A stretch of 64,000 nucleotides of DNA from NCBI RefSeq assembly GCF_050920415.1, contig NZ_CP169309.1; one strand, given 5' to 3'. The notes beneath the pieces are model-generated. The model was not told the origin of the DNA. It searched no databases and saw nothing but the letters and a program-made list of their open reading frames with translations. This DNA comes from Escherichia coli. Lineage in GTDB: Bacteria > Pseudomonadota > Gammaproteobacteria > Enterobacterales > Enterobacteriaceae. Shown here one piece after another: positions 4,769 through 56,099 of this stretch (position 1 is the first letter of the stretch; each line of letters opens with the position of its first letter). The position numbers were made by a program, and so were the translations under genes.

Positions 4769-4801
4769 TTACTGAGGTTATCTTTACTGTCAATGTTCAA
4801 G

Positions 4802-4836
4802 AAAACGCCCGATGACTTTCGCTATCGGGCGTTTTT
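4802..4836. terminator. Bidirectional rho-independent terminator between convergent yfaP and atoB
   Basis: Hairpin aaaacgcccgat...atcgggcgtttt with A/T runs on both sides. Confidence 0.55.
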
Positions 4837-4841
4837 ACATG

Positions 4842-36781: not shown

Positions 36782-38721
36782 TGCCAGAAATTGGTAACGG
36801 ACTGCTGTGCCTGGCGCTAGGAATTGCGCTGTTGCTGTCCGTGTATCCGCTATGGGGCGTGGCGCGCGGGGATGCGCGCATGATGGCTTCTTCGCGCTTG
36901 TTTGCCTGGCTGCTATTTATGTCTGTGGCTGGCGCATTTCTGGTGCTGGTCAATGCTTTCGTGGTGAATGACTTTACTGTCACCTATGTTGCCAGCAACT
37001 CCAATACCCAGCTTCCGGTGTGGTATCGCGTGGCGGCAACCTGGGGTGCGCATGAAGGCTCGCTACTGCTGTGGGTGCTGCTGATGAGCGGCTGGACCTT
37101 TGCGGTGGCGATTTTTAGTCAGCGTATTCCGCTGGATATTGTGGCCCGTGTACTGGCGATAATGGGGATGGTCAGTGTCGGCTTTTTGCTGTTCATTCTC
37201 TTTACCTCTAACCCGTTCTCACGCACGTTGCCAAACTTCCCGATTGAAGGGCGCGATCTTAACCCGCTGTTGCAGGATCCAGGGCTGATCTTCCACCCGC
37301 CCCTGCTCTATATGGGGTACGTCGGTTTCTCGGTGGCGTTTGCTTTTGCCATTGCTTCTTTGCTGAGTGGTCGTCTGGACAGCACTTACGCACGCTTTAC
37401 CCGTCCGTGGACGTTGGCCGCGTGGATTTTCCTGACGCTCGGCATTGTGCTCGGTTCCGCATGGGCCTATTACGAACTCGGCTGGGGCGGCTGGTGGTTC
37501 TGGGATCCGGTAGAAAACGCCTCGTTTATGCCGTGGTTGGTGGGTACTGCGCTGATGCACTCGCTAGCGGTCACTGAACAACGCGCCAGCTTCAAAGCGT
37601 GGACATTACTGCTGGCAATCAGTGCCTTCTCGTTGTGTCTGTTGGGGACTTTCCTCGTGCGTTCCGGCGTGCTGGTATCGGTACACGCGTTTGCGTCTGA
37701 TCCGGCGCGCGGTATGTTTATCCTCGCTTTTATGGTGCTGGTGATTGGCGGTTCGCTGCTGCTGTTTGCCGCGCGTGGACACAAAGTTCGCTCACGCGTA
37801 AACAATGCGCTGTGGTCGCGGGAATCTCTGCTGTTAGCGAACAACGTTTTGCTGGTCGCCGCAATGCTGGTGGTATTGCTGGGGACGCTGCTGCCGCTGG
37901 TGCACAAGCAACTGGGACTGGGCAGCATTTCGATTGGCGAACCGTTCTTCAACACCATGTTTACCTGGCTGATGGTGCCGTTTGCGCTACTGCTGGGTGT
38001 CGGTCCTCTGGTGCGCTGGGGGCGCGATCGCCCACGTAAAATCCGCAATTTATTGATTATCGCCTTCATCTCTACGCTGGTGCTGTCTCTGCTGTTGCCG
38101 TGGCTGTTCGAAAGCAAAGTTGTGGCGATGACGGTGCTCGGCCTGGCAATGGCCTGCTGGATTGCGGTGCTGGCAATTGCGGAAGCTGCGCTGCGTATTT
38201 CACGCGGCACGAAAACCACCTTTAGTTATTGGGGCATGGTGGCGGCTCACCTGGGGCTGGCGGTAACAATTGTTGGTATTGCCTTTAGCCAGAACTATAG
38301 CGTTGAGCGTGATGTGCGCATGAAGTCCGGTGATAGCGTCGATATTCATGAATATCGCTTCACCTTCCGTGATGTCAAAGAAGTGACTGGTCCGAACTGG
38401 CGTGGCGGTGTGGCGACTATCGGCGTAACGCGAGAGGGTAAACCGGAAACGGTGCTGTATGCGGAAAAACGTTATTACAACACTGCCGGGTCGATGATGA
38501 CCGAAGCGGCGATTGACGGTGGCATCACGCGTGACCTGTACGCAGCGCTCGGTGAAGAGTTGGAAAACGGCGCGTGGGCTGTGCGTCTTTACTACAAACC
38601 GTTTGTTCGCTGGATTTGGGCGGGCGGGCTGATGATGGCGTTGGGCGGGCTGCTGTGCCTGTTTGATCCTCGCTATCGTAAGCGCGTGAACCCGCAGAAA
38701 ACTGCGCCGGAGGCTGTATGA
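36778..38721 (+). CDS. ccmF: Cytochrome c-type biogenesis heme lyase CcmF
   Basis: 647-aa polytopic membrane ORF. Confidence 0.9.
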
Positions 38722-39275
38722 AGCGCAACGTATTGTTAATTCCTTTGATTATCTTCCTGGCGATTGCCGCGGCGTTGCTGTGGCAGCTGGCACGTAATGC
38801 CGAAGGGGATGATCCGACCAATCTGGAATCGGCGCTCATTGGCAAGCCGGTGCCAAAGTTTCGCCTCGAATCACTGGACAATCCGGGGCAGTTTTATCAG
38901 GCGGATGTGCTGACTCAGGGCAAACCAGTGCTGCTTAACGTCTGGGCGACCTGGTGTCCGACCTGCCGTGCGGAACATCAATATCTGAATCAGCTTTCTG
39001 CGCAGGGCATCCGCGTGGTCGGCATGAACTATAAAGACGATCGCCAGAAGGCAATCAACTGGCTGAAGGAGCTGGGCAATCCTTACGCGTTAAGCCTGTT
39101 TGATGGCGACGGCATGTTAGGGCTGGATCTCGGTGTCTATGGCGCGCCAGAAACGTTCCTCATCGACGGCAACGGCATCATTCGCTATCGCCATGCGGGT
39201 GATCTCAATCCCCGCGTCTGGGAAGAAGAGATCAAGCCGTTGTGGGAGAAATACAGTAAGGAGGCCGCACAATGA
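38718..39275 (+). CDS. ccmG: Thiol:disulfide interchange protein CcmG/DsbE
   Basis: 185-aa ORF with WCPTC thioredoxin motif. Confidence 0.9.
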   Translation: MKRNVLLIPLIIFLAIAAALLWQLARNAEGDDPTNLESALIGKPVPKFRLESLDNPGQFYQADVLTQGKPVLLNVWATWCPTCRAEHQYLNQLSAQGIRVVGMNYKDDRQKAINWLKELGNPYALSLFDGDGMLGLDLGVYGAPETFLIDGNGIIRYRHAGDLNPRVWEEEIKPLWEKYSKEAAQ

Positions 39276-40324
39276 GGTTTTTATTGGGCGTGCTGATGCT
39301 GATGATCTCCGGCTCAGCGCTGGCGACCATCGACGTGTTGCAGTTTAAAGATGAAGCACAGGAACAACAGTTTCGTCAGCTTACTGAAGAACTGCGCTGC
39401 CCGAAATGCCAGAATAACAGCATTGCCGATTCCAACTCGATGATTGCCACCGACCTGCGCCAGAAAGTGTACGAACTGATGCAGGAAGGTAAAAGTAAGA
39501 AAGAGATTGTCGATTATATGGTGGCGCGCTATGGCAACTTCGTCACTTACGATCCGCCGTTAACGCCGCTGACCGTTCTGCTGTGGGTGCTACCGGTAGT
39601 CGCTATTGGCATTGGCGGTTGGGTTATTTACTCCCGCTCGCGGCGTCGGGTACGCGTGGTGCAGGAAGAGTTTCCTGAACAAAGCGTGCCGGAAGGTAAG
39701 CGTGCCGGATATGTTGTTTATCTGCCGGGTATTGTGGTGGCGTTAATTGTGGCTGGCGTCAGCTACTACCAGACCGGCAATTATCAGCAGGTGAAAATTT
39801 GGCAGCAGGCCACGGCTCAGGCGCCGGCGTTATTGGACAGGGCGCTGGATCCGAAAGCTGAGCCGCTCAACGAAGAAGAGATGTCCCGCCTTGCGCTGGG
39901 GATGCGTACTCAACTGCAAAAAAATCCGGGAGATATAGAAGGCTGGATTATGTTGGGCCGCGTTGGCATGGCGCTGGGTAACGCCAGTATTGCCACCGAT
40001 GCATACGCCACTGCGTATCGCCTCGATCCGAAGAACAGCGATGCTGCACTGGGATACGCTGAAGCGTTGACACGTTCATCTGATCCCAACGACAACCGCC
40101 TGGGTGGTGAACTGCTACGCCAGTTGGTGAGAACGGACCATAGCAATATCCGTGTGTTAAGCATGTATGCGTTTAATGCCTTTGAGCAGCAGCGATTTGG
40201 CGAAGCCGTTGCCGCGTGGGAGATGATGTTGAAACTCTTACCTGCCAACGATACTCGCCGTGCGGTGATTGAACGCAGTATCGCGCAGGCGATGCAACAT
40301 TTATCACCACAGGAGAGTAAATAA
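39272..40324 (+). CDS. ccmH: Cytochrome c-type biogenesis protein CcmH
   Basis: 350-aa ORF; N-terminal CPKC motif, C-terminal TPR-like region. Confidence 0.9.
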   Translation: MRFLLGVLMLMISGSALATIDVLQFKDEAQEQQFRQLTEELRCPKCQNNSIADSNSMIATDLRQKVYELMQEGKSKKEIVDYMVARYGNFVTYDPPLTPLTVLLWVLPVVAIGIGGWVIYSRSRRRVRVVQEEFPEQSVPEGKRAGYVVYLPGIVVALIVAGVSYYQTGNYQQVKIWQQATAQAPALLDRALDPKAEPLNEEEMSRLALGMRTQLQKNPGDIEGWIMLGRVGMALGNASIATDAYATAYRLDPKNSDAALGYAEALTRSSDPNDNRLGGELLRQLVRTDHSNIRVLSMYAFNAFEQQRFGEAVAAWEMMLKLLPANDTRRAVIERSIAQAMQHLSPQESK

Positions 40325-40383
40325 GAACAAGCCCGATGGTGATGCCATCGGGCCAGACTGATGGCAAAGTGCGCTTTGTTTAT

Positions 40384-40417
40384 GCCAGATGCGGCGTAAA
40401 CGCCTTATTCAGCCTAC
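40384..40417 (+). repeat. REP element flanking the IS
   Basis: gccagatgcggcgtaaacgccttattcagcctac. Confidence 0.5.
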
Positions 40418-40512
40418 AAAATCGTGCGAACTCAATACATTGCTCGATCCGCGTAGATACTGTTATGGCCTGCAAGTTTTTTTCTACCCTGGTTTCCCAG
40501 ATTGCAGGCATG

Positions 40513-41745
<1,233 letters not shown>

Positions 41746-41815: not shown

Positions 41816-42463
41816 TTATTGTGCCCCACGTTGTTGCAGGAACAGAATGGTGGCCGCCACGCGTGAGCGGACATTGAGTTTACGCAGCAGATTGCGAATG
41901 TGTACTTTTACTGTCTGCTCGGAAATATTCAACACCGCGGCAATCTGTTTATTTGACAGTCCCTGTGCCAGCTCGTGCAGAACATCCAGCTCGCGCTCCG
42001 TCAGCACGCTGAAGGGATCTTCTTCCGCGCCAAACATTTCACGTTCACGTAAGTACTGATTGACGCGTTCGCTAAAGACTTTGCTGCCTTTCGCTCCGGC
42101 ACGAATCGCTTCCAGCAACACTTCCGGGTCGCTGTCTTTCAACAGATAACCGTCTGCGCCTGCGTCTATCAGCGCAAAGACATCGCTGGAGGCATCTGAT
42201 ACGGTCAGGATAATAATTTGCGCGGTAACGCCATCCCTGCGCAAGGCATTGAGGGTATCCAGGCCACTCATACCTTTCATATTGAGATCCAGCAAGATCA
42301 CGTCGATATCCAGTCTATTCGCCAGATCGATAGCACTTGCGCCGTCGCCCGCTTCGGCGACCACTTCAAAGCCAGGATCAAGTTCCAGTAACTGACGAAC
42401 ACCGCGTCGCATAAGTGGATGATCATCCACAATCATCACCTGAAAAGGCGTTGCTTCAGGCAT
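41816..42463 (-). CDS. narP: Nitrate/nitrite response regulator NarP
   Basis: ORF 41816..42493; start placed at MPEATPFQVMIVDDHP; receiver plus LuxR HTH. Confidence 0.9.
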   Translation of the reverse strand: MPEATPFQVMIVDDHPLMRRGVRQLLELDPGFEVVAEAGDGASAIDLANRLDIDVILLDLNMKGMSGLDTLNALRRDGVTAQIIILTVSDASSDVFALIDAGADGYLLKDSDPEVLLEAIRAGAKGSKVFSERVNQYLREREMFGAEEDPFSVLTERELDVLHELAQGLSNKQIAAVLNISEQTVKVHIRNLLRKLNVRSRVAATILFLQQRGAQ

Positions 42464-42781
42464 AGTAGTCTCCTGAGGTTTTATTAGAATCATTATGTTT
42501 GAGCGTAGCGTTGGAAACGCTACCAGGCGCGTGAATGTTACCCCATTTTATGTATGGACATGTAGTGAAAAGTACAGCTCAGTAGTTCACCCTCGCATCA
42601 TTTTCATTATAAATATGGAATTTTGCATCAACTTCCCATCAAGAAAAACAACTAAAAAATCAATCACAATACATGTGCATTTCTTTAAACAGTTTTTAAA
42701 AACTGACTCCGGGTATGGCGCTATGGGTATTTTCAGTACCCAATGCTTTTACAGCAATTAATTTCATAGGATGAAAGATTA

Positions 42782-45376
42782 ATGCATCACTCTGGTTCTG
42801 TTTCTCTTTGTCGTTCCGCAATATCTGTTCTGGTGGCTACAGCGTTATATTCTCCCATAGCATTGGCATCAACTGTTGAGTATGGAACGACTGTTGATGG
42901 TGTTGTCCTGGAAAAAGATATCCAGCTGGTTTATGGGACCGCAAATAATACGAAAATCACTCCCAGCGGAGAACAGCATATAAAAGAATGTGGTGTAAGT
43001 AATAATGCTGAAATAAACGGAGGGTATCAGTACATTGAAGCATATGGCTCAGCAGAATACTCAGTATTAAATGATGGTTATCAAATTGTTCAATTGGGTG
43101 GTGCAGCAAACCAAACTACCATCAATAATGGTGTGTTACAGGTTTATGGAGCTGCTAATGAAGCCACTATTAAAGGCGGGCGCTTACTCGTTGAAACCGA
43201 AGGCATTGCCATCTTCGCCGTTATCGAAAAGGGAGGACTACTGGAGGTTAAAGATGGCGGATTGGCATTTGCGGTAGATCAAAAAGCAGGCGGTGCAATC
43301 AAAACAACCACGCGGGTTATGGAGGTATTCGGAACAAATCGTCTCGGTCAGTTTGATATCAAAGATGGGGTTGCTAACAATATGCTGTTGGAAAACGGCG
43401 GAAGTTTGCGGGTTGAAGAGAATGACTTCGCTTATAATACCACTGTGGATAGTGGTGGTTTACTGGAGGTTATGGATGGCGGGACTGCAACTGGCGTTGA
43501 CAAAAAAGCAGGCGGAAAATTAATTGTTTCAACGAATGCGCTGGAAGTGAGTGGTACAAACAGTAAAGGCCAATTTAGCATAAAAGATGGCGTGTCTAAA
43601 AATTATGAACTAGATGACGGTTCCGGGCTAATTGTTATGGAGGGCACTCAGGCAATTGACACTATCCTTGATGAGCATGCAACCATGCAATCGTTGGGAA
43701 GAGATACTGGTACGAGAGTGCAGGCACATGCAGTTTATGATCTTGGTCGGTCAGTGCAGAATGGAAGCATAAAATATTCCTCAAATGCTATATCTGAAAA
43801 TATGGTTATCGATAATGGTCGCGCTAATGTCTGGACTGGCACAATGGTTAACGTAACAGTCAGAGGAAATGAGGGCATTATTGATGCAATGGCGCTGGAA
43901 TTAAATTTTTATACACCGGCTACATTATTAGGTGACGTGGTGGTTTCTGATGGTGCATCTTTAAGAACGCATGGCGCAGTGGATACCAGTAAAGCAGATG
44001 TTTCTATCGAAGAGAGTTTTTGGGCTATTATTGCCGATATCAATAATATAAACCAAAACACCCGTCTCAATTTAGCAAACCTGGTGATGTCAGACGGAAC
44101 TGTCGTTATGATGGCTGAGCCAGTGACTCGTTCATCTGTGACGGCAAGTGCGGAAAATTTCACTACATTGACCACTAATACCCTGTCGGGAAACGGCAAT
44201 TTTTATATGCGCACCGATATGGCCAATCACCAGAGCGATCAGCTTAACGTCACCGATCAGGCAACAGGTAATTTCAAAATCTTCGTTACGGACACCGGTG
44301 CCAGCCCGGCAGCAGGAGATAGCCTTACACTGGTAACAACGGGCGGCGGTGATGCTGCATTTACCTTGGGCAATGCCGGAGGCGTTGTTGATATCGGTAC
44401 GTATGAATATATCTTGCAAGATAATGGCAACCATAGCTGGAGTCTGGCAGAGAATCGCACGCAAATAACTCCTTCAACCACTGATGTGTTGAATATGGCG
44501 GCAGCACAACCGCTGGTATTTGATGCAGAACTGGATACCGTACGTGAGCGTCTTGGTAGCGTAAAAGGCGTTAATTACGATACGGCGATGTGGAGTTCGG
44601 CAATTAACACCCGCAACAACGTAACCACTGATGCGGGAGCTGGCTTTGAGCAAACATTGACGGGGCTGACGCTCGGTATCGATAGCCGTTTCTCCCGTGA
44701 AGAAAGCAGCACAATTCGTGGCTTATTCTTTGGTTACTCTCATTCTGATATTGGTTTTGATCGCGGCGGTAAAGGCAATGTCGATAGCTATACCCTGGGG
44801 GCTTATGCCGGTTGGGAGCATCAGAACGGTGCCTATGTTGATGGGGTGGTGAAAGTTGACCGTTTTTCCAACACCATCCATGGCAAGATGAGTAATGGGG
44901 CAACAGCGTTTGGCGATTACAATAGTAACGGCGCGGGTGCTCATGTCGAGAGCGGGTTCCGTTGGGGGGAGGGGTTGTGGAATGTAAGGCCTTATCTGTC
45001 CTTTACCGGCTTTACCACTGATGGTCAGGACTATACGTTATCAAATGGTATGCGAGCGGATGTGGGAAATACCCGCATATTACGCGCTGAAGCGGGAACG
45101 GCGGTAAGCTATCACATGGACCTGCAAAACGGTACGACGCTGGAACCCTGGCTGAAAGCCGCCGTGCGTCAGGAATACGCCGATTCTAACCAGGTGAATG
45201 TTAATGACGACGGCAAATTTAATAATGACGTGGCTGGAACCCGTGGCGTTTATCAGGCTGGGATAAGGTCATCGTTTACCCCGACGTTAAGCGGTCATTT
45301 GTCAGTCAGCTATGGCAATGGCGCGGGGGTAGAATCACCGTGGAATACCCAGGCGGGTGTGGTCTGGACGTTCTGA
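42782..45376 (+). CDS. yejO: Autotransporter YejO, apparently intact (864 aa)
   Basis: 864-aa ORF with signal peptide, repetitive passenger region and C-terminal beta-barrel ending ...VVWTF. Confidence 0.8.
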   Translation: MHHSGSVSLCRSAISVLVATALYSPIALASTVEYGTTVDGVVLEKDIQLVYGTANNTKITPSGEQHIKECGVSNNAEINGGYQYIEAYGSAEYSVLNDGYQIVQLGGAANQTTINNGVLQVYGAANEATIKGGRLLVETEGIAIFAVIEKGGLLEVKDGGLAFAVDQKAGGAIKTTTRVMEVFGTNRLGQFDIKDGVANNMLLENGGSLRVEENDFAYNTTVDSGGLLEVMDGGTATGVDKKAGGKLIVSTNALEVSGTNSKGQFSIKDGVSKNYELDDGSGLIVMEGTQAIDTILDEHATMQSLGRDTGTRVQAHAVYDLGRSVQNGSIKYSSNAISENMVIDNGRANVWTGTMVNVTVRGNEGIIDAMALELNFYTPATLLGDVVVSDGASLRTHGAVDTSKADVSIEESFWAIIADINNINQNTRLNLANLVMSDGTVVMMAEPVTRSSVTASAENFTTLTTNTLSGNGNFYMRTDMANHQSDQLNVTDQATGNFKIFVTDTGASPAAGDSLTLVTTGGGDAAFTLGNAGGVVDIGTYEYILQDNGNHSWSLAENRTQITPSTTDVLNMAAAQPLVFDAELDTVRERLGSVKGVNYDTAMWSSAINTRNNVTTDAGAGFEQTLTGLTLGIDSRFSREESSTIRGLFFGYSHSDIGFDRGGKGNVDSYTLGAYAGWEHQNGAYVDGVVKVDRFSNTIHGKMSNGATAFGDYNSNGAGAHVESGFRWGEGLWNVRPYLSFTGFTTDGQDYTLSNGMRADVGNTRILRAEAGTAVSYHMDLQNGTTLEPWLKAAVRQEYADSNQVNVNDDGKFNNDVAGTRGVYQAGIRSSFTPTLSGHLSVSYGNGAGVESPWNTQAGVVWTF

Positions 45377-45440
45377 TAACAGAAAATAAACAGGCCGTAA
45401 TGTGTCGCGGTCTGTTTATCAAATTAATCGCAGATATAAA

Positions 45441-45470
45441 AAAAACCAACCGCAATAGGTTGGTTTTTCT
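45441..45470. terminator. Bidirectional terminator at the island/yejO junction
   Basis: aaaaaaccaaccgcaataggttggtttttct: hairpin with A/T runs on both sides. Confidence 0.55.
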
Positions 45471-45493
45471 TGGGATTTTTGGTCGCACGAGAG
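45471..45493. repeat. Distal att direct repeat of the proL island
   Basis: tgggatttttggtcgcacgagag resembles tgggcgatttggtcggcacgagag at the tRNA 3' end (56281..56304). Confidence 0.55.
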
Positions 45494-45660
45494 TAGTTTA
45501 ATTGAGTGTATAACTAAATGATTTTAAATAATATTCTTTATTCAACTTTTAAATCGTATAACCAAACGTATAACTAAAATAATTTGCTGAAAAAGTGTAC
45601 AATTTCAGCAATAATTGCCCTAGCGACTATCATCCTGCTCCCCGGATTTTTTCCGGTTAA

Positions 45661-45897
45661 ATGTTAATCAGGCTGCTGGGCTTTGCCTGTTCGGTAGGTG
45701 TAATGATTATCGTAATACTTTTCCCCCAATGGGGTAAAAGCATCAACCGTAACGGAAGTCGTTATGGTTGCCTTGATGATCTGCGTGGTCATTATGACCA
45801 TTCAGCCAATGACCTTAATCAGAGCTTTTCGCTAAAAATGACGTTGGCCACTCGTCCGAAAAGCACAAAATCCCATCGATTTTTAATTAACGGTTAA
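45661..45897 (+). CDS. Hypothetical small membrane protein (78 aa)
   Basis: ORF with hydrophobic N-terminal segment (LLGFACSVGVMIIVILF); no convincing RBS. Confidence 0.25.
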   Translation: MLIRLLGFACSVGVMIIVILFPQWGKSINRNGSRYGCLDDLRGHYDHSANDLNQSFSLKMTLATRPKSTKSHRFLING

Positions 45898-46035
45898 ACC
45901 GTCTTTTTGTCACGTCGTGTCACTGGTTGTCACTCTCCGTCACGATCTCCGATAGCCTGGCTGCAAATTAAACTACGAAAATTTCGTAGTTCTGACTTCT
46001 TTCAGATAGTCGGTTGCCTGGTTACACGAAAAAAA

Positions 46036-46407
46036 TTACTTCCTGCGTTTATCCCGCTTTGTATGTCCGTGCTGAATGCCCCGCAGTGGATCTTCTTTTT
46101 TCAGGTCGATCCCCATGTCCGTTAGTGTTTTTGTGGCGGCGGTTCTTATGGCACAAATCAGGTCTCTTTCCGGTTCCCGGGTTATGGTTGCCTTCCGGAT
46201 ACATGCCGTTCGTCGTTCCGTTACATACTGACGCGCTTCATCACTTGCCGCCTGTTTCAGTAACTCACCCCAGCGATTAGCCGCCCGTCGCCATAAACCT
46301 TTCGCTTCCAGTTCTTCCGCTTTGTCATCATGCACCATAAGCATAATCCCATTGATACCTGTTAAATCTGAATGGTTGGTTTCCGTTCTTTTGATAATTT
46401 CCCTCAT
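46036..46407 (-). CDS. Hypothetical protein, possibly PerC-family transcriptional activator-like
   Basis: 123-aa ORF with LEAKGLWRRAANRWGELL motif reminiscent of PerC-type activators; start may be an internal Met. Confidence 0.4.
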   Translation of the reverse strand: MREIIKRTETNHSDLTGINGIMLMVHDDKAEELEAKGLWRRAANRWGELLKQAASDEARQYVTERRTACIRKATITREPERDLICAIRTAATKTLTDMGIDLKKEDPLRGIQHGHTKRDKRRK

Positions 46408-46450
46408 AGCTTATTGTATGACAGTACTGTCCCACAATAAGGAATCACAC

Positions 46451-46750
46451 ATGAGAATGACCAGGCACAAAAAACAGATTCTTGAACTTTACAAACCTGA
46501 GTATCGCGATTGGGTGCGGGTGGAGGCCGGAGATCCGCCTTTTGATGTTCGTGGTGTGACAGTGCTGCTCTATGGTTCCGAATATCAGCGATATCACATA
46601 GAGGCAACCCGACGAACGTTAAACGCTATGGTAAATGATGGGATCCTGTACCGCGTGAAAGTGCGCGAACCCCGCTTTGATGTGCGTATCGGTAGCGATG
46701 GCGCTCACTGTACGGTAATCCGGTACGGGCTGGGTAAATCAGATGATTAA
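46451..46750 (+). CDS. Hypothetical protein (99 aa)
   Basis: Start chosen at ATG 46451 preceded by AAGGA RBS (ORF track extends upstream to 46322); no recognisable domain. Confidence 0.45.
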   Translation: MRMTRHKKQILELYKPEYRDWVRVEAGDPPFDVRGVTVLLYGSEYQRYHIEATRRTLNAMVNDGILYRVKVREPRFDVRIGSDGAHCTVIRYGLGKSDD

Positions 46751-46873
46751 ATCACCAGAATGTAAATTTACATTCTGCCAGCCACCAGCTACAGAACGCA
46801 AATTTGCACTTTGCTGAAATATTAACGGGTTAGGCCAGAGTGCAAATTTGCATTATGCTTTAACTTCAGCAAG

Positions 46874-47155
46874 TTACCGCCGTAACCGCTCCGGCTTCTT
46901 CCACTGGTACGTTATTTTGGCTTTTTCCCTGTACGTCTGTATCCGGCGACGGTAGGCCAGCATTTCAAGAACGCGGATCCGTATGTCGCGCATATCCGCA
47001 TCATTAAGCTGGATACCATCACGGTGCATCACCTCAGCAACCACACGAACATAATTTTCTGCGGTCACGCTGTCCGGCTGCGTGGCCTGTTCGTCAGCCT
47101 GCTGGTTGATTCCGGCGACGCGGCGGATTAATCGCAGTAGTTCGGTTTCTGTCAT
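46874..47155 (-). CDS. Hypothetical protein (93 aa)
   Basis: ORF just downstream of the capsid-gene terminator; no recognisable domain. Confidence 0.4.
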   Translation of the reverse strand: MTETELLRLIRRVAGINQQADEQATQPDSVTAENYVRVVAEVMHRDGIQLNDADMRDIRIRVLEMLAYRRRIQTYREKAKITYQWKKPERLRR

Positions 47156-47315
47156 TGTGCCCCCATCGCGCTGGTTAAGAAAACAAGCTCAGATTTTTTG
47201 TAAAGAATCTGTCACGCTAAAAGATGTCGAACAAAAAACAACCTTCTCCATCATCTTTTTTGCATCGATTACATTAAAAACAACAGGTTACATACATGAT
47301 GATGATGACGATAAA

Positions 47316-47412
47316 ATCACAAAAATGCGCTTTTTTCCGCGCCCGCCCGCCCCGTGTTCATACCCACCCCACCAGGAGGACCCGCAAAAAAGGCGGCTGG
47401 TGCCGCCTTGTT
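47316..47412 (-). repeat. Repeated non-coding element, copy A: terminator hairpin plus GC box
   Basis: Shares a ~38-bp near-identical core (aaaaatgcgc(t/c)tttttccgcgcccgcccgccccgtg) and similar downstream architecture with copy B. Confidence 0.6.
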
Positions 47413-47413
47413 G

Positions 47414-49303
47414 TCATAGTGAATCGGTACCGCCTGATTTGACCATACCGCGATAATCCAGAGCGGCCACACCAGCATCAATACGGACTTTCCAGGCCAC
47501 ACCGTCAACGATGAAACCTTCCTGCTGTTCAAGGTAAGGCTCGTCATTGCCATCAAGATAAGCCACCTCGATTGTGTCCGTTCCCTGTGCGGAAAGCATG
47601 TACCATTGTTTTTCGCTGATATCATCAAGGCGGGGATCGACGATAATATCCAGTAGTTTGTGATACGGGTTAAAGATCCCGCTGTTTTTATCTGCCCCGA
47701 AAGGTGCGGTTGAGTTAATCATCTGCAACGCGCGATCTTCCAGTGCTGCCGGAACTAAAAGGAATTTAGGCGCAATATTCAGCACTTCGCCATTTTTGTC
47801 CTTCTGTGTGCGCATCAGGTGACGTGCTGCACTAAGTCCCGGTGTTGTCAGTCCTGCTTCAATCAGGTTGCTGTGTTTTTTGTCAAACAGCGCTATTCCA
47901 TCAGAAAGTTTTACGTTGCCTGTAAGCACCAGATTAACCAGATTTCCCACCGTTCTTGATGCTGCACGGCCCATAGCCATTGGCACCGTTGATAACTGAT
48001 CAAGGTCATCATTGATTATCGCCTGGCGGGTAATGCTGAAAATATTCCCGTAAGTAGCCAGCGCGATGGGTTCACCGCGATCGCTGGTGGTGATGTATTT
48101 ATATTCTGCCCCTTCCGGCACTTTGTTTAACGTAGAGAAACCATTCAGACCAACGCGGCGGGCTTCACGAAAGTTTGAAAGGGAACCTTTTTTCGTCCAC
48201 TGGCGGAATGTTTCGCCGCTGTGCTCCCAGCCTGCAAGCACTGATTTTTCAGCACCACCAGCAAGGATATCGGTAAAATCGCTGCTGCTGTGGTTGAATG
48301 CCGCGTTTACTATCTGCGAGCGTGTTCCGTAGCTGCCCGTGCTTATACCACGATGGGTTAATGATGCCTGTGCCATATCGAAAAGGCTCATCATGGCGTA
48401 AGGATTACCGCGTTCGGCCCGTTCGTGACCAAGACGCGCATTAAGCCCCTGGCGCATTGCATCGCCGGTTATGTTGCCGTTATCCGTGTACGCGTAGTAA
48501 AGATTTGCGGGGGTGGTTTTATTTGTTGGCGTTGATTCTTTACCCATAGCGAGTAAAAGGCGTTCGCGTGCATTCTCAACGCTACATTCTGAATCAGCAA
48601 GACAACTTATAGCCAGGTCGTTATATCTTCCGTTGAACGTGCCAAACAATTCACGGATGCCGTTAAGTCGTTCCTGTTCGCCACTGCCAGTTTTCTGGCT
48701 GATCATGCTTTTAATTTTTTCCGGCATATTTGAAAAATCTCCGATTCGTTTTGATTCAATTCGGGCCATTGCTGTAATCGCGGGTATAACCTCATCTGCG
48801 AAGCCGTTAGCCTTACACTCATTGCCATCCATCCAGGTTTCCGCCTCCATCATGGCGGTGATTTCCTGTTTGCTCCTGCCCGTTCTTCCGGCGTAGGTTT
48901 CAGCCATCGTGTCGCCCAGCTTGTCCATCAGGTCAGCAAAGCGGCGAACGTCGCCCGACACTCCGGCAGTAACACCACGGGGGGCATGTATCATCATCAT
49001 TGCGTTTTCAGGCATAACGATGTGATCGCCACACATGGCAATAAACGAGGCCATAGAAGCCGCCATGCCTTCAATGTGTACAATTTTCTTTGCCGGATGA
49101 TTTTTCAGGGCGTTATAGATAGCCAGCCCTTCAAAGATGTCGCCACCAGGTGAATGGATGCGAAGATGGATTTCAGACGCATTACCACACGCGTTGATCT
49201 CGTCAGTAAGTGCCGATGCTTTTACACCGTACCCGCCGATCTCGTCATAAATGCGCACATAGACAACATCTGCCATAGCCTTAATGGAAAACCATGTTTT
49301 CAT
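47414..49303 (-). CDS. Prohead protease (ClpP/S14-like) fused to a capsid-like C-terminal domain
   Basis: 629-aa ORF: N-terminal ~180 aa has ClpP-like motifs (GMAASMAS, MMIHAP); C-terminal ~350 aa reads as an HK97-fold major capsid protein, assigned by impression only. Confidence 0.75.
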   Translation of the reverse strand: MKTWFSIKAMADVVYVRIYDEIGGYGVKASALTDEINACGNASEIHLRIHSPGGDIFEGLAIYNALKNHPAKKIVHIEGMAASMASFIAMCGDHIVMPENAMMMIHAPRGVTAGVSGDVRRFADLMDKLGDTMAETYAGRTGRSKQEITAMMEAETWMDGNECKANGFADEVIPAITAMARIESKRIGDFSNMPEKIKSMISQKTGSGEQERLNGIRELFGTFNGRYNDLAISCLADSECSVENARERLLLAMGKESTPTNKTTPANLYYAYTDNGNITGDAMRQGLNARLGHERAERGNPYAMMSLFDMAQASLTHRGISTGSYGTRSQIVNAAFNHSSSDFTDILAGGAEKSVLAGWEHSGETFRQWTKKGSLSNFREARRVGLNGFSTLNKVPEGAEYKYITTSDRGEPIALATYGNIFSITRQAIINDDLDQLSTVPMAMGRAASRTVGNLVNLVLTGNVKLSDGIALFDKKHSNLIEAGLTTPGLSAARHLMRTQKDKNGEVLNIAPKFLLVPAALEDRALQMINSTAPFGADKNSGIFNPYHKLLDIIVDPRLDDISEKQWYMLSAQGTDTIEVAYLDGNDEPYLEQQEGFIVDGVAWKVRIDAGVAALDYRGMVKSGGTDSL

Positions 49304-49494
49304 AGCCAGGCTCCTAACGTTGCCCTGTACCAGTATTCAACCGCGCTGCGTGTGATTTGTCCTTTCGTGGGTACCGGCATACCCGGGTGATTGTCTTTGA
49401 TGAACTGCTGATAGCGTTCGATCTTCTCCATAGTTCCGGCGTCTATGTGTACCGTGGCACTTTTATCCGGCTTTCTGGTGTTGTTCTCTGGCAT
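49300..49494 (-). CDS. Hypothetical small protein coupled to the protease-capsid gene
   Basis: ORF 49300..49527; internal ATG at 49494 has a strong GGAGG RBS; stop overlaps capsid ATG (ATGA). Confidence 0.45.
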   Translation of the reverse strand: MPENNTRKPDKSATVHIDAGTMEKIERYQQFIKDNHPGMPVPTKGQITRSAVEYWYRATLGAWL

Positions 49495-49854
49495 AAATCC
49501 GCCTCCGTTTTGATTAACGGGCATCATTATTGATCGATAAAAGTAATAGATAAATCATTTTCTACCTGAAAATTAGATTATATTTTTTCTGATTATTCTC
49601 AGAGAGGCAAAGCCATTGACGCATTTTTGCTATTGAAGCAATATTAAGACTCGTCATCCTGGCGATAAAAACTCCTTTGTCGTGTAAAAGCGCCTCCGGT
49701 AACAGCAATCGAGGGCGCTTTTTTTTGCGCCTGTTTTTTTGTAAATGTTTTCGGGAACGCTCCAGTGATGAACAAAAAACAACCTGATTCGACACTAAAA
49801 ATTTTTATTCCTCAATATATCAATAACTTATAGTGGTGGTGATGGTGCCATAAA

Positions 49855-49952
49855 AATCAAAAAATGCGCCTTTTTCCGCGCCCGCCCGCCCCGTGGACAG
49901 GCCCACCAAGCCAGGAGTACCTACAAAAAAGCCGGATTGCTCCGGCTGTGTG
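49855..49952 (-). repeat. Repeated non-coding element, copy B
   Basis: See copy A; hairpin gccggattgctccggc plus GC box. Confidence 0.6.
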
Positions 49953-49965
49953 CTCACTTCTTCGG

Positions 49966-50217
49966 TTATTCTCCAGCGCTTTTAACGTTGATGGTTGTAA
50001 CCTGTTCCGCTTCGGCAATCTCCCATTCTGTCAGCGTGGCAAAGTTTGCCGCCGCTGTGGTCATGAATGCGCTTATCAGGTCGGGATGTGCTTTCGCGTA
50101 TCCTTCCCCCGTGTTGCGGTCGATGATTTTTATCGCCACTCTCAGCCAGTGCTCTGTAAGGTCAATGGCGCGGTTATGCTGCTTCTTCTGATTATTAAGT
50201 TTTCCTGATGTGCGCAT
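49966..50217 (-). CDS. Hypothetical protein (83 aa)
   Basis: ORF between the iteron array and repeat copy B; G-rich RBS-like sequence upstream. Confidence 0.4.
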   Translation of the reverse strand: MRTSGKLNNQKKQHNRAIDLTEHWLRVAIKIIDRNTGEGYAKAHPDLISAFMTTAAANFATLTEWEIAEAEQVTTINVKSAGE

Positions 50218-50249
50218 TTTTATTTTTACCCCCTCGTTTAAAAAGTTTT

Positions 50250-50500
50250 GAGTTGTGCCTCCCCTTGTCTACCTTATCTACCTTACTGGCCACCATGCCA
50301 GTAATGGCGCGGCTTTCAGTGGGGTAGAGTGCTTTTATCCACTATCTACCCCGTATCTACCTCCCTGTCTGATTCAGGTAAAATCAGGTAGAGAGGGTAG
50401 ATAGTAGGTAGACAGTAAAAAAAGGCTGTCTACCCAAGTTAATGTACTGAATTAAATGTATTTTTCTTTACTCAGGTAGACAGGGTAGACAGCCATTGCA
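50250..50500. repeat. Iteron array, putative replication origin
   Basis: At least 11 copies of GGTAGA/TCTACC in both orientations within ~250 bp, just 3' of the replication gene. Confidence 0.55.
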
Positions 50501-50505
50501 ACAAA

Positions 50506-52254
50506 TTATAAAAACGCGTCGCAATCGTCTGTTGTTATTGCGTTAGTCTGCGTTACTCCTTTAACTTTCCGCGTAATATATTCATGTCCGTAAACTTTCG
50601 CGGCTGGCTTCATAGCCTTGCCAAAGTCATTTACGTTTAGCGGTTTGCTCCTGCCTGCGTACGCCATAAACGCCAGATAGACGCGGTAAAGGCTGTTTCT
50701 GGTCGTGTACTTCACTGAATCGCCACCGCCGCCCATCATCAGGCCGCGTGCTTCCTCCAGAAAATTCAGGAACTGGCAAAACTCAATAACCGGATCCGTC
50801 TGTTGCTTTATTGCCAGTGCTTCATCACCGTCACGCTGTTCAATGAGTAAAGCCCGTGCCTTTTCAGGGTCGGCAAAGTTCGCCAGCAAGCGGCGGATAA
50901 TGACAGGGATTTCAGCCGCGATCTTTTCCGGTAGCTCCCTGTCTTTTTCTGCCTCGCTTACGATGTTATCGAACCGGAATATCACCCGACGACGTGCCAC
51001 ACCTCCGGCCCGTTCGGTGAATATCATCGGATTGTTATTGGTTGCCAGCACCACCGCCCTGATTACCGCCGTAAAACGCTTTTCATATTTCGGGTTAATT
51101 TCCACGGGGTCGCCGCCCGTGATTTTCTTGATGCCCGTTCCTTCGCCTGTATATTTCTGCTGGTCTGCCAGGACGATAAGACGACTCCCGACAACCTGCG
51201 CACGCCCACCAGCATCATCAAGCGATGTCATTTCAGCGCTTACCGTGTTTTGTTTCCCTGCCAGAAGGCTGGCTATGTGTGTGAATGTACTTTTACCGCT
51301 CCCGCCGTCTCCGGTGGCCTCAATAAACATCTGCCAGTCGTACCGGTTCGCCATAATCATGTACAGCGCGGCACATATACGCATCATCTTGCTCGGGTCT
51401 TTTCCGGCTGCGTGCTCAAGCCATTTATGAAAGTTTGGCGCGTTATCGCGGATGTTCTCCCCGGGTGCTGGTGGCGTGTACTCAATGCCGTTGTGCGTGG
51501 TGATCCAGTTCTCCGGCGTGTGCGGGGAAAATTCCCCCGTTTTCAGGTCAAGCGCACCATTGGCGAACGGCAGCAAATCGCCGGACGGCTCGCCCATTGG
51601 TTCGGCAATAACTTTTAACGCTTCCACGGCGTTATTGATTACGCGCTTGCTGAAAGTGGCCCTGTGCTCTGAATAGATAGCCACCATTTCGCGGCTCAGC
51701 TCCATTGTGCTGACCGGACACCATACCCCGCCGCGCCATACGTGAACGATTTCACTTTCAGGATGCACACAAACGCCATCAAAGCGCTCGGCAAGCAGCT
51801 GCGCGCGCTCACTGTCTGCCATTTGTGCCAGTTGCGTATTTTTCTGCTCCGGCATGGTAAGCCCTGCGGCAATATTTTCACGCTCAGCATTCAGATAGCG
51901 CCGCCAGTTTTCACACTTCTGGACGTGCATTCCTTCGGGGTAAAAATTTGCGTCCTGAATATCTGCCGCCGCCAGCTTCTGACCAATCTTTTTGGTCTCC
52001 ACCAAATCCAGTTCTCCGGCCTGGTACAGCCTTACGCGCTTTTTCCCATCCGGAACAATTTTCAGTGCATCAAGTTCGGCAAGCTGATTTGGCCCAAGCC
52101 ACACAGGCGGCACATTATCGCCGGATGCGGGGCCATCCTGCTCCTGCCATTGTTTCGCGTGCGACCAGGCATCACTACCCGCGAAAATAATTACCTCTGT
52201 GTCTTTGTGTTTTATTCCGCGTGGCTGTTTTTTTACGTTCGGTGCCAGTTTCAT
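50506..52254 (-). CDS. Replication protein: NTPase/helicase-like with Walker A motif (primase-helicase-like)
   Basis: 582-aa ORF with Walker A GDGGSGKST and a putative Walker B (LIVLAD); SF3/D5/P4-alpha-type assignment is by impression. Confidence 0.75.
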   Translation of the reverse strand: MKLAPNVKKQPRGIKHKDTEVIIFAGSDAWSHAKQWQEQDGPASGDNVPPVWLGPNQLAELDALKIVPDGKKRVRLYQAGELDLVETKKIGQKLAAADIQDANFYPEGMHVQKCENWRRYLNAERENIAAGLTMPEQKNTQLAQMADSERAQLLAERFDGVCVHPESEIVHVWRGGVWCPVSTMELSREMVAIYSEHRATFSKRVINNAVEALKVIAEPMGEPSGDLLPFANGALDLKTGEFSPHTPENWITTHNGIEYTPPAPGENIRDNAPNFHKWLEHAAGKDPSKMMRICAALYMIMANRYDWQMFIEATGDGGSGKSTFTHIASLLAGKQNTVSAEMTSLDDAGGRAQVVGSRLIVLADQQKYTGEGTGIKKITGGDPVEINPKYEKRFTAVIRAVVLATNNNPMIFTERAGGVARRRVIFRFDNIVSEAEKDRELPEKIAAEIPVIIRRLLANFADPEKARALLIEQRDGDEALAIKQQTDPVIEFCQFLNFLEEARGLMMGGGGDSVKYTTRNSLYRVYLAFMAYAGRSKPLNVNDFGKAMKPAAKVYGHEYITRKVKGVTQTNAITTDDCDAFL

Positions 52255-52550
52255 TTTTTACCCCTGAATACGTTAAGCATCTTTTTTATTTCCTGAATAT
52301 TGGCGCGTGCTTTCTCCCTGCTGGTTGGTTTACTGCGGGGCGCTGCCTGTACCAGAGAAAAATCACGCCGAAACTGATAAACAGGCATCACGCAATCATA
52401 TTCGTAGCCTTCACGACGGTAGGTGATGCGCCGTTCTGCCACGCCTTTAATCGTTACCATGCCGCCATATTTATCGCGGTAAATATCGCCGCGCGTAAAT
52501 TTAGGGTGAGTGTTGCCACTAGCAGTTAAGCCAGAAATTTTCTTTTTCAT
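52251..52550 (-). CDS. Hypothetical protein (99 aa), coupled to the replication gene
   Basis: Stop overlaps replication-gene start; basic protein. Confidence 0.45.
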   Translation of the reverse strand: MKKKISGLTASGNTHPKFTRGDIYRDKYGGMVTIKGVAERRITYRREGYEYDCVMPVYQFRRDFSLVQAAPRSKPTSREKARANIQEIKKMLNVFRGKK

Positions 52551-52566
52551 GGTTTTTATTCCGCGT

Positions 52567-52782
52567 TTATTTTTTATCGTGAATTTCGATCGCTTTATTT
52601 AATTCGGTGATTACCGTATCGAGTAATGAAATAAACGCACCAGCAAGATTAGATTCACGTTCACCTTCCGGCGCATCACTTAAACCATCAAGCCAGATAA
52701 GCAATATTTGCCGCAAGCATTCACTGTTAGTCAGTGCGTTTTCTGCATGGCTCATTAATTTAAAATAACGGTCATCATGCAT
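52567..52782 (-). CDS. Hypothetical protein (~71 aa)
   Basis: ORF 52567..52827; internal ATG at 52782 has AAGGGG RBS and sits 2 nt after the upstream gene's stop. Confidence 0.4.
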   Translation of the reverse strand: MHDDRYFKLMSHAENALTNSECLRQILLIWLDGLSDAPEGERESNLAGAFISLLDTVITELNKAIEIHDKK

Positions 52783-53011
52783 GGTGCGCCCCTTGAATAT
52801 CTGCGGTAAGAATTTTGCCTGCCTCATTCAGCGCCATATCAGCACTAAGTTGCATAACCGCCAGCGAATGAGGAACGAAAGCCCCTGCATATTCTGTTTC
52901 ACTGGTGGCGTGCTTATGCGCCATGTCAGCAATAACAGAAATATCAATAAGCGCATCCATCAGCGTTTTGATGGCTTCGGCGGCTGCGTCCGGACGGGGG
53001 TTATTGCACAT
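52775..53011 (-). CDS. Hypothetical protein (78 aa), first gene of the replication operon
   Basis: Strong GGAGG RBS 6-7 nt upstream of ATG; faces the divergent operator region. Confidence 0.45.
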   Translation of the reverse strand: MCNNPRPDAAAEAIKTLMDALIDISVIADMAHKHATSETEYAGAFVPHSLAVMQLSADMALNEAGKILTADIQGAHHA

Positions 53012-53289
53012 GGCGCACCTCCTGACGAATACGGGCGGCGAATACCATCACGCAGCCAGCCGGGGATTGCTGGCGGGCTTCCTGTTCGCTGGTGGCCTCG
53101 ATGGTAATCACGCGCGGTTGTGCCGTGCTCAGGGCGATAAAACGCCAGATGTATTTATTCAGGTTGTGCGAATCCCGCCCTTGCGGGTGTGTGGTATGAT
53201 TTCTCATAGCTGCCTCGATACTCTTTCTATCGTTGGTGGTTAGACGCCCTGCATGTGTGCCACCACTGCGGGGCGTTGCGTTTTTTGAT

Positions 53290-53347
53290 GCACACGTGTT
53301 AAGGTGTACACCTACAAAGCAAAAACATAACGCCATAGGTGTACACA
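53290..53347. promoter_or_regulatory. Operator cluster in the divergent control region
   Basis: Palindromes ACACGTGT (53293), GGTGTACACC (53303..53312) and AGGTGTACAC (53338..53346, overlapping the RBS of the plus-strand gene). Confidence 0.5.
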
Positions 53348-53541
53348 TGTCAACAGTTATTAAGCGCGATAAAAAACAAAAAGGCACAGGAAAGACCCCA
53401 CCGTTCCATATGCGTATAGTTCCTGAATTGAAGGAGCAGTTTGATAACGAAGCCAGTAACGATGGAGTAAGTCTTGCCAACTGGCTTAAAGAGTTGGGGC
53501 GCGCCGAACTAAAGCGACGCGGCATTGAACCTAAAGGCTGA
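53347..53541 (+). CDS. Small DNA-binding regulator, putative ribbon-helix-helix (64 aa)
   Basis: ATG with AGGTG RBS; HMRIVPELKEQF strand-like then helical DGVSLANWLKELGRAEL suggests RHH (assigned by impression); divergent from the replication operon. Confidence 0.45.
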   Translation: MSTVIKRDKKQKGTGKTPPFHMRIVPELKEQFDNEASNDGVSLANWLKELGRAELKRRGIEPKG

Positions 53542-53544
53542 TGT

Positions 53545-53664
53545 ATGACCGATAACAAACTTTCTCTAACAGAGAATAAACCATCAGGCTTCTTACCAAG
53601 AAAAATCCTTGATGAGATCAAACGCCGCCAGCGTAAAAAATCCAAAGGAGCAGACACGGAATAG
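53545..53664 (+). CDS. Hypothetical basic peptide (39 aa)
   Basis: Short ORF 3 nt after the upstream stop; below the ORF-track length cutoff. Confidence 0.2.
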   Translation: MTDNKLSLTENKPSGFLPRKILDEIKRRQRKKSKGADTE

Positions 53665-53667
53665 CTT

Positions 53668-53832
53668 ATGCAACAAATACCATACTGGCTTGGCTCTCTG
53701 TTTGTATTTGCATTTCTCATGAAATATTGCATTAGCAATGAACTTGTCGGTAATGAAAGTGCATGCGCGAGCGCTGAAAAAAATATTCCACTTCTCGTAT
53801 ATGAAAACGAAAGCCCTGTGAACCGCAATTGA
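53668..53832 (+). CDS. Hypothetical small membrane peptide (54 aa)
   Basis: ATG 3 nt after the upstream stop; hydrophobic N-terminus (YWLGSLFVFAFLM) then polar tail. Confidence 0.25.
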   Translation: MQQIPYWLGSLFVFAFLMKYCISNELVGNESACASAEKNIPLLVYENESPVNRN

Positions 53833-54108
53833 GCGAAATTTAATGAATTCACTCTTTGCCCACCAGCCGCAAATGTGGCATTGTTGGCGATGCTCATGCG
53901 TTGGGGATAACGTGTAGCTTGTGTCGAAGGGCCATCGTGACAGGTGGCCTTTTCTTTACCTGTTATCTGGCAATTGTGGCGCTTCGTCACACGGTTGATA
54001 TAATTCCCCTGCACTGATCCATTTTTTTCGCAGCAGGTTAATTGTTCGCAAGGGCGCTCCGGCAACGGGGCGCTTTTTGTTATGTTCATCACGTTACGCC
54101 TCACACCA

Positions 54109-54315
54109 TTACGCAGCCGTTCCGCGCGCTTCTTCCTCGCGCTCTTTCAGCCAGGCCAGCACTTCATCTTCATACCAGCCAACACGACGCAGACCGATTT
54201 TGAAGCCTTTCGGAAATTTTCCGGCGTTGATCATGTCCTGTAGCGAACTGTCTGCCTTGATGCGCAGAATATTTTTTACTTCCTGACGGGTAAGAATTTT
54301 TCTGATTGTTTCCAC
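54109..54315 (-). CDS. alpA: AlpA-family transcriptional regulator/excisionase-like protein (GTG start)
   Basis: 68-aa ORF with MerR-like HTH (LTRQEVKNILRIKADSSLQDMINAGKFPKGFKIG...); typical neighbour of P4-type integrases. Confidence 0.8.
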   Translation of the reverse strand: METIRKILTRQEVKNILRIKADSSLQDMINAGKFPKGFKIGLRRVGWYEDEVLAWLKEREEEARGTAA

Positions 54316-54384
54316 TATGTTTTACCTCGTTAATCCGGCGTATTCCGGTGATAAATACGGTAAAACAGGGCAGGGCGGGAAAAA

Positions 54385-54420
54385 CAGTACCCACCGTTTT
54401 AAAACGGTACCCACTGTTTT
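54385..54420. promoter_or_regulatory. Putative operator upstream of alpA
   Basis: acaGTACCCACcgtttt aaaacgGTACCCACtgtttt: motif repeated 20 bp apart around a central palindrome. Confidence 0.4.
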
Positions 54421-54485
54421 TTATCTTATTGATTACGCTTTTCTTTCTGCAAAAAAATAGCGACCGCAAGGGGCCGCTATTGTGA

Positions 54486-54728
54486 TTACCGTTTCCACTT
54501 CTTAGGTCGCCCACCGCATTTAAGGCTGGTGGGCCTCAGCACCTTGTCGATGCTTTCAGCCAGATTTTTCGATGCGCCACGCGAGCGCAAAAAACTGACT
54601 ACCTCGTGTTTTGTGGGGGCAGTTGATTTGTCTTCCGGATCGTACGTTGACCAGAATTCACGATTTGCCATTAAGGCCAACTGAAGGCCTTCACCATAGG
54701 CAGGGGATACCTTTTCATTGAAAAACAC
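54486..54728 (-). CDS. Hypothetical protein (80 aa) between integrase and alpA
   Basis: ORF followed by a hairpin/T-run near 54455..54480. Confidence 0.3.
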   Translation of the reverse strand: MFFNEKVSPAYGEGLQLALMANREFWSTYDPEDKSTAPTKHEVVSFLRSRGASKNLAESIDKVLRPTSLKCGGRPKKWKR

Positions 54729-54829
54729 TCGGATAACTCCTTGAATTTCAAGAGTCGGGTCTCTCTGTATATGGTGATTATACGATGGTTTAGCATGGTT
54801 TGCATCGCTTTTACTGGTTTTTTGTACAG

Positions 54830-56071: not shown

Positions 56072-56099
56072 ATGTCTATGATTCCACACGAAAAAACAG

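Follow-up and report, generated by a model that had tools for sequence, protein, structure and literature searches.

The yejO autotransporter gene of an Escherichia coli strain is most probably an intact orthologue carrying a rare passenger allele

The yejO locus of Escherichia coli raises the question of whether an uninterrupted autotransporter gene, at a position where the K-12 copy is disrupted, sets a strain apart or represents the usual condition of the species. This was examined in a 64,000-nucleotide stretch of contig NZ_CP169309.1 (assembly GCF_050920415.1), referred to here as the window. The reading that we hold with high confidence is that yejO in the window is an intact type Va orthologue, AIDA-I/Ag43-like and in its ordinary state, whose passenger belongs to a rare, diverged and mosaic allele under purifying selection.

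The coding sequence was returned by the ORF finder as a single plus-strand frame of the window (42782..45376; ATG start, 864 codons plus stop, uninterrupted; RefSeq WP_000546505.1). On re-translation of 42782-45376, the terminal stop codon was the only one, and neither frameshifts nor internal stops were found. The preliminary description had presented an uninterrupted 864-residue frame running from a signal peptide to a C-terminal beta-barrel, and had named a frameshift on careful translation as evidence that would speak against it; the ORF list, the re-translation and the domain matches to PF03797 and TIGR01414 all agree with that account, and the gene reads clean. The frame is not fortuitous, since by a simple calculation the probability that random sequence stays open over 864 codons is (61/64)^864, roughly 1e-18. 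An in-frame stop five codons 5' of the ATG makes a longer alternative start impossible, and a Shine-Dalgarno-like AGGA can be read from the sequence 10 nt before the ATG (42768..42771, plus strand). The identical protein is present on 77 public contigs and is named "autotransporter YejO" in the RefSeq annotation of strain MFDS1022581. That strain differs from the window by 3 nt across the 27.8 to 45.5 kb backbone, the islands of the two being different, and it appears to be a close relative of the window strain with a distinct genome.

The assignment to yejO, also made in the preliminary description, is borne out by the position between narP and proL, by 90.6% protein identity to K-12 YejO and by the name given in RefSeq and nr; as judged from these comparisons, the gene is yejO. 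Its divergent upstream neighbour narP (41816..42463, minus strand; dS 0.067 vs K-12) serves as a synteny marker, and the 288-bp divergent intergenic region between the two genes (42494..42781, 36% GC as read from the sequence) is the presumed promoter and regulatory region of yejO. On the downstream side, the tRNA-Pro(GGG) gene proL (56290..56366, minus strand; ARAGORN and Rfam tRNA) is both a synteny marker and the attachment site of an island; in genomes that lack the island, the distance from the yejO stop to proL is ~100 bp. The order narP-yejO-proL in the window matches that of K-12, O157 and other strains.

The K-12 copy is an IS-disrupted pseudogene, as the preliminary description had stated. 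A K-12-derived record annotates yejO as a pseudogene in two pieces with IS5 between them, and in a K-12-like locus record the element occupies 4068-5262 with TTAT on both flanks. The insertion in K-12 (a 1195-bp IS5 with TTAT duplication) follows nt 67 of the ORF and falls inside the part that codes for the signal peptide; this disruption is also described in PMC11005336 and PMC11677980. The corresponding target site in the window, at codons 22-23, is a single, unoccupied TTAT (42845..42848, plus strand). The alignment to K-12 yejO that had been proposed as a check thus placed IS5 in K-12 and an empty site in the window, and an intact K-12 gene, which had been named as contrary evidence, was not what it returned. 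Removal in silico of IS5 and one TTAT yields a K-12 ORF of 863 aa that is 90.6% identical to the 864-aa window protein, with 82 amino-acid differences clustered in two passenger segments.

Whether an intact copy is unusual depends on how the gene is distributed in the species. A yejO match was found in 5421/5426 complete E. coli genomes, and 4279 of the 5426 carry the gene at full length, counted as such when a single place spanned 80% of the gene or more. The K-12 IS5::yejO junction was found in only 357 of the 5426, and an intact yejO is thus the common state. Five sampled non-K-12 copies (O157:H7, EAEC 042, N96, 2013C-4282 and 24A16CRGN010) are annotated as intact and have no internal stops. 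Loss of the gene was seen in ~28% of complete genomes and deletion remnants in ~21% (partial matches in roughly 1,140). The two partial-match loci that were inspected held a frameshifted ~0.9 kb yejO piece and a 240-bp stump adjoining a prophage; the idea that partial matches represent another autotransporter at the same locus was rejected, both inspected loci being decayed yejO remnants. One further genome has an IS3 insertion in yejO. K-12 is one of several lineages with an inactivated yejO; the cause is IS5 there, and deletions or other IS elements in the rest, and the repeated loss in other lineages indicates that the gene is dispensable. ST131 is reported to be without yejO. According to PMC3426408, which cites Wells et al. 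(2010), commensal and diarrheagenic genomes carry YejO, and in uropathogenic genomes it is truncated.

In light of these counts and of a pattern already published (Wells et al. 2010, as cited in PMC3426408), the suggestion that intactness is a noteworthy property of this strain does not hold. The observation is correct and ordinary: the exact protein is catalogued and its distribution is known. K-12 is the atypical case for yejO, and K-12 pseudogene calls are unsuitable as a baseline for wild strains. The importance of the intact gene as such is small.

The allele is the uncommon feature of the window copy. In comparisons of the whole gene, one genome was at least 99% identical, 19 were 95-99% identical and the other 5,400 were at ~91% or below; the allele class of the window is represented in 18-20 of about 5400 genomes (~0.4% of complete genomes). 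In DNA, the window passenger has ~80-90% identity to the common form, and two segments vary most. Variable segment 1 (aa 30-150; 42869..43231, plus strand; dN 0.088 and dS 0.28 vs K-12) has 78-86% protein identity to K-12 in 50-aa windows. Variable segment 2 (aa 301-450; 43682..44131, plus strand; dN 0.135, dS 0.59) is the most divergent and includes a 1-codon indel, with DNA identity to K-12 falling to 79-80% at 43733-44133. Among 4293 genomes, identity over segment 2 was sharply bimodal, with 18 genomes at 95% or more, 4269 at 80-90% and none at 90-95%.

Synonymous divergence from K-12 is likewise elevated in the passenger: dS rises from 0.28 through 0.33 to 0.59 over three consecutive segments of it, and is 0.15-0.17 for the autochaperone domain and the barrel. 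The flanking genes gave values of 0.067 (narP), 0.083 (yejM) and 0.15-0.17 (dsbE and ccmH), and narP is ~98% identical to that of typical E. coli; the synonymous divergence of the window allele is 2-7 times that of flanking genes. Between the yejO allele classes dS is 0.25-0.26, vs ~0.05 within the common class. The copy of 24A16CRGN010 is a mosaic: over aa 301-450 it agrees with the window class, over aa 30-300 its divergence from the window equals that of the common class, and the rare passenger appears to recombine as a module.

For a possible source of the allele, a degenerate DNA pattern of the barrel start was applied to one genome per species and returned solely E. albertii NBRC 107761. 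The orthologue in this species, compared over aa 403-864 only, is 85-87% identical to both allele classes; being equally near to both, E. albertii was rejected as the donor. It may be suggested, although we regard it as rather doubtful, that the allele was imported from an unsampled or non-coli Escherichia or is an old balanced polymorphism, and that it alters the binding specificity or antigenic type of the surface-exposed part of the protein. The existence of at least two deeply diverged passenger classes, together with mosaics, is relevant to work on yejO function, antigenicity and its use as a typing marker.

A frame may be kept while the protein is functionally dead through missense changes, and an allele that is rare (18-20 of about 5400 genomes) and carries 82 differences from K-12 YejO in two passenger segments might be of this kind. 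We consider this very improbable. Synonymous changes in yejO outnumber replacements (135 vs 92), and dN/dS is 0.17 overall, 0.08 in the barrel and 0.23-0.31 even in the variable segments. These values imply long-term purifying selection across a deep allele split, and count against a dead gene. Additionally, conservation extends to the signal peptide, the autochaperone domain, the barrel and the beta-signal, the identical protein recurs on the 77 contigs mentioned above, and the 72 distinct members of the allele class are all full length or nearly so.

The architecture of the product fits an intact type Va autotransporter from end to end. At the N-terminus, a Sec signal peptide of aa 1-29 with cleavage after ALA (42782..42868, plus strand) was predicted by inspection and hydropathy. 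By sequence rules, the N-terminus MHHSGSVSLCR-SAISVLVATALYSP-IALA, with ST directly after the cleavage point, combines a positive n-region with a hydrophobic core of 14 residues (Kyte-Doolittle mean over 9 residues up to 2.5) and an A-x-A site for cleavage after residue 29, and it is identical across six aligned alleles except at residue 3; the predicted peptide has the features expected of the Sec signal of type Va autotransporters. The passenger domain (aa 30-560; 42869..44461, plus strand) contains AIDA-type beta-helix repeats, as indicated by PF16168, TIGR04415 and PDB sequence matches. The Pfam AIDA family (PF16168) matched two stretches of the passenger (E 2.4e-53), the best of them at aa 184-245 (43331-43516, plus strand), and the NCBIfam repeat TIGR04415 scored 71.8 bits vs a cut-off of 30. 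A pertactin-like (autochaperone) domain follows at aa 432-556 (44075..44449, plus strand; PF03212, E 5.6e-45), and PDB pertactin 1dab aligns to aa 365-556.

The C-terminal part is the autotransporter beta-barrel translocator (44588..45373, plus strand; PF03797, TIGR01414 and 3qq2), which ends in QAGVVWTF. PF03797 covers aa 603-842 (E 7.8e-46, 157 bits vs a cut-off of 26), TIGR01414 covers aa 457-864 (E 4.7e-110, 369 bits vs a cut-off of 16), and the BrkA barrel 3qq2 aligns to aa 583-864. Outer-membrane beta-signals follow the motif polar-x-G-x-x-aromatic-x-aromatic; the terminal Q-A-G-V-V-W-T-F of YejO fits it and is invariant across all alleles. With a barrel, a beta-signal ending in an aromatic residue, and a beta-helical passenger with an autochaperone region, YejO has what a type Va autotransporter would be predicted to have. 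An AlphaFold2 model built on the six-allele, near-identical alignment averaged a pLDDT of 43; values of 70-83 were confined to aa 110-260, and the model was too poor to be used.

These parts suggest how the protein would work. The 29-residue signal peptide would direct Sec export, and the C-terminal ~260 residues would be inserted as an outer-membrane beta-barrel by BAM, which would read the terminal QAGVVWTF. The passenger of ~530 residues would then be threaded out, the autochaperone domain nucleating the folding of a beta-helix at the surface, and this surface beta-helix may mediate adhesion or aggregation. By analogy with its relatives, the most likely role of the YejO passenger is that of an adhesin or aggregation factor; the functional, adhesin-like protein suggested in the preliminary description is plausible.

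The passenger could instead have no adhesin role, and confer serum resistance or bind complement regulators as BrkA and Vag8 do, or act purely in cell-cell aggregation. The sole full-length PDB match is Vag8 (aa 176-861, E 9.6e-32), the best barrel match is BrkA, and no paper characterising the function of YejO experimentally was found in the literature searched. The strongest passenger matches, in contrast, are to Ag43, an AidA-I family adhesin and TibA (E 1e-22 to 1e-33) and are accompanied by AIDA repeats, and no enzymatic domain was detected in the Pfam search. A non-adhesin passenger is on this evidence clearly unlikely, and a complement or serum-resistance role would be the weaker alternative to adhesion or aggregation.

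An intact gene may also be cryptic, i.e., kept silent at the level of transcription, for instance if H-NS acts on an AT-rich promoter and 5' coding region, and so contribute nothing under normal conditions. Most of the passenger-coding part of yejO has 41-46% GC vs ~50-56% in the flanking genes, and the upstream region has 36-38%; silencing of such AT-rich sequence would be a reasonable inference. A scan for sigma-70 consensus sites returned none between narP and yejO, a result compatible with silencing, and site counts over the region covered by the scan did not exceed those expected from shuffles. Repeated loss elsewhere indicates weak selection. Silencing is the reported state of several K-12 autotransporter and fimbrial genes. 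The phenotypes of the related YfaL needed overexpression (Roux 2005, as cited in PMC7251025). Against this, dN/dS of 0.17 over so deep a split between alleles implies that the protein has long been under selection, and silencing in the laboratory is compatible with expression in the host.

Human sera also bear on expression. Serum antibodies to recombinant YejO were found in 73/141 healthy people (PMC11242715), a frequent recognition that argues against a cryptic gene and points indirectly to expression in vivo. We regard a silenced yejO as a serious possibility, if one that falls somewhat short of an even chance. The antigen used in PMC11242715 was a K-12-derived recombinant, and its signal could reflect cross-reaction with related autotransporters.

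A search for signatures of phase variation found none: GATC is absent upstream of yejO, and the gene has no homopolymer tract as long as 7 nt. Rfam over 40-57 kb gave nothing except tRNA, and PMC11677980 mentions only an "uncharacterized yejO promoter". After the stop codon, RNA folding placed two stable hairpins at 45386..45475 (plus strand; -35.2 kcal/mol, z = -6.3 vs shuffles) in a region conserved in K-12. The second of these (45442-45467) has an A-run before it and a T-run after it, and is therefore likely a bidirectional intrinsic terminator.

The preliminary description had also drawn attention to the island beside yejO. Homology to K-12 stops at 45493 and resumes at 56288, and an imperfect copy of the proL 3' end (TGGTCG-CACGAGAG, 45481..45494; comparison with K-12 and proL) marks the junction on the yejO side. 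The 10.8-kb insert codes for an integrase, a D5-type primase, a fused ClpP-like protease and capsid protein, and a PerC-family activator, and is, as read from its sequence, a proL-integrated, phage-satellite-like element. The proL site beside yejO has been described before as a place of integration (PMC4924310). The adjacency thus stands, with the island at proL. A significance of the adjacency for yejO does not: the island sits between the terminator and proL, the attachment site lies ~100 bp past the yejO stop, ORF and terminator are untouched, and the proximity is incidental.

Compared with K-12 yejO (b2190), the window gene has the same locus (narP - yejO - proL - yejM) and the same domain order, a signal peptide that differs at residue 3 only and a nearly identical barrel. 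It differs in that IS5 cuts the start codon and first 22 codons off the K-12 gene, whereas the site is empty in the window, and in the much greater divergence of aa 30-150 and 301-450, where protein identity falls as low as 66% per 50 aa. The common-class proteins of O157:H7 (WP_000554210.1) and EAEC 042 (WP_000554230.1) share intactness, locus, architecture and RefSeq name with window YejO, but have 863 aa and 91.1-91.3% protein identity to it.

Amongst other E. coli autotransporters, YfaL/EhaC is likewise a chromosomal AIDA-I-type protein that is cryptic in K-12, but it is encoded by a gene separate from yejO. EhaC was considered as the O157 name of YejO and rejected, as the literature equates EhaC with YfaL (PMC7251025); data on EhaC are therefore inapplicable to YejO. 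The Bordetella proteins Vag8, BrkA and pertactin have in common with YejO a pertactin-like autochaperone domain and a barrel, and Vag8 aligns nearly full-length (aa 176-861); they belong to another genus, however, and the likeness is distant and at family level only.

The closest known systems also include the self-associating autotransporters Ag43, AIDA-I and TibA, which share with YejO the type Va architecture, AIDA-type repeats (PF16168, TIGR04415) and passenger similarity (PDB 7koh, 7ko9, 4kh3 and 4q1q; E 1e-22 to 1e-33). YejO nevertheless differs from these proteins in having a shorter passenger and in scoring far under the NCBIfam equivalog cut-offs, at 120 bits vs 1200 for NF033177 (Ag43) and 64 bits vs 1200 for NF033176 (AIDA-I); its score for the BafA equivalog is also far under the cut-off. 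The region upstream of yejO is without the GATC/OxyR-type phase-variation sites of Ag43, and among the ORFs and annotation at the locus there is no heptosyltransferase gene adjoining yejO. Taken by these scores, YejO is a relative of the Ag43/Cah and AIDA-I equivalogs and not a member of either.

The 10.8-kb island integrated at proL (45495-56287) encodes a PerC-family activator (46039-46407), a 629-aa fusion of a ClpP-like protease and a major capsid protein (47417-49303), a D5-type primase-helicase (50509-52254) and an integrase (54833-56089), and it resembles a phage satellite that encodes capsid protein. A search of Pfam with its 367-aa ORF (53004-54104) returned no match. Within the island, a 98-nt direct repeat was identified at 47311-47408 and 49850-49947 (79% identity), the end of which is formed by a GC-rich hairpin-like sequence. 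The same spacing of approximately 2540 nt separates two exact copies of a 16-nt sequence, at 47229 and 49770. Just inside both island ends, at 45555-45590 and 56135-56170, the motif CGTATAAC(C/T)AAACGTATAACTAAAA is repeated, and a weaker copy was detected at 45495-45530. These motifs may represent arm-type binding sites of the integrase.

Comparison with K-12 revealed that the ccmF-dsbE-ccmH genes (37502-40456) share 95.8% DNA identity with their K-12 counterparts, an unusual divergence for core genes. Synonymous divergence (dS) was 0.15-0.17 in the ccm genes, against 0.07-0.08 in narP and yejM. These values suggest that the region has a mosaic history shaped by recombination. The interval between ccmH and narP carries a copy of the IS110-family element IS621 (40457-41733) that K-12 lacks. 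When the window is compared with strain MFDS1022581, which is otherwise nearly identical, one nucleotide is missing at 40937; this deletion frameshifts the transposase ORF of the element (40561-41541, minus strand), which encodes 217 aa rather than 326 aa.

The yejO copies of the window and MFDS1022581 differ only at position 43015 (A in the window, C in MFDS1022581), the third position of codon 78; because this change is synonymous, the two YejO proteins are identical. The total difference in the chromosome backbone between 27783 and 45500 amounts to 3 nt. In contrast, the island sequence departs from that of MFDS1022581 (locus L001) directly inside the yejO-side junction, over a compared stretch of 45536-53850, and between 47.2 and 53.8 kb it shows only 86-90% identity or has no match. 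Altogether, a divergent island in a nearly invariant backbone suggests the exchange or acquisition of a different island variant at the same att site among very close relatives.
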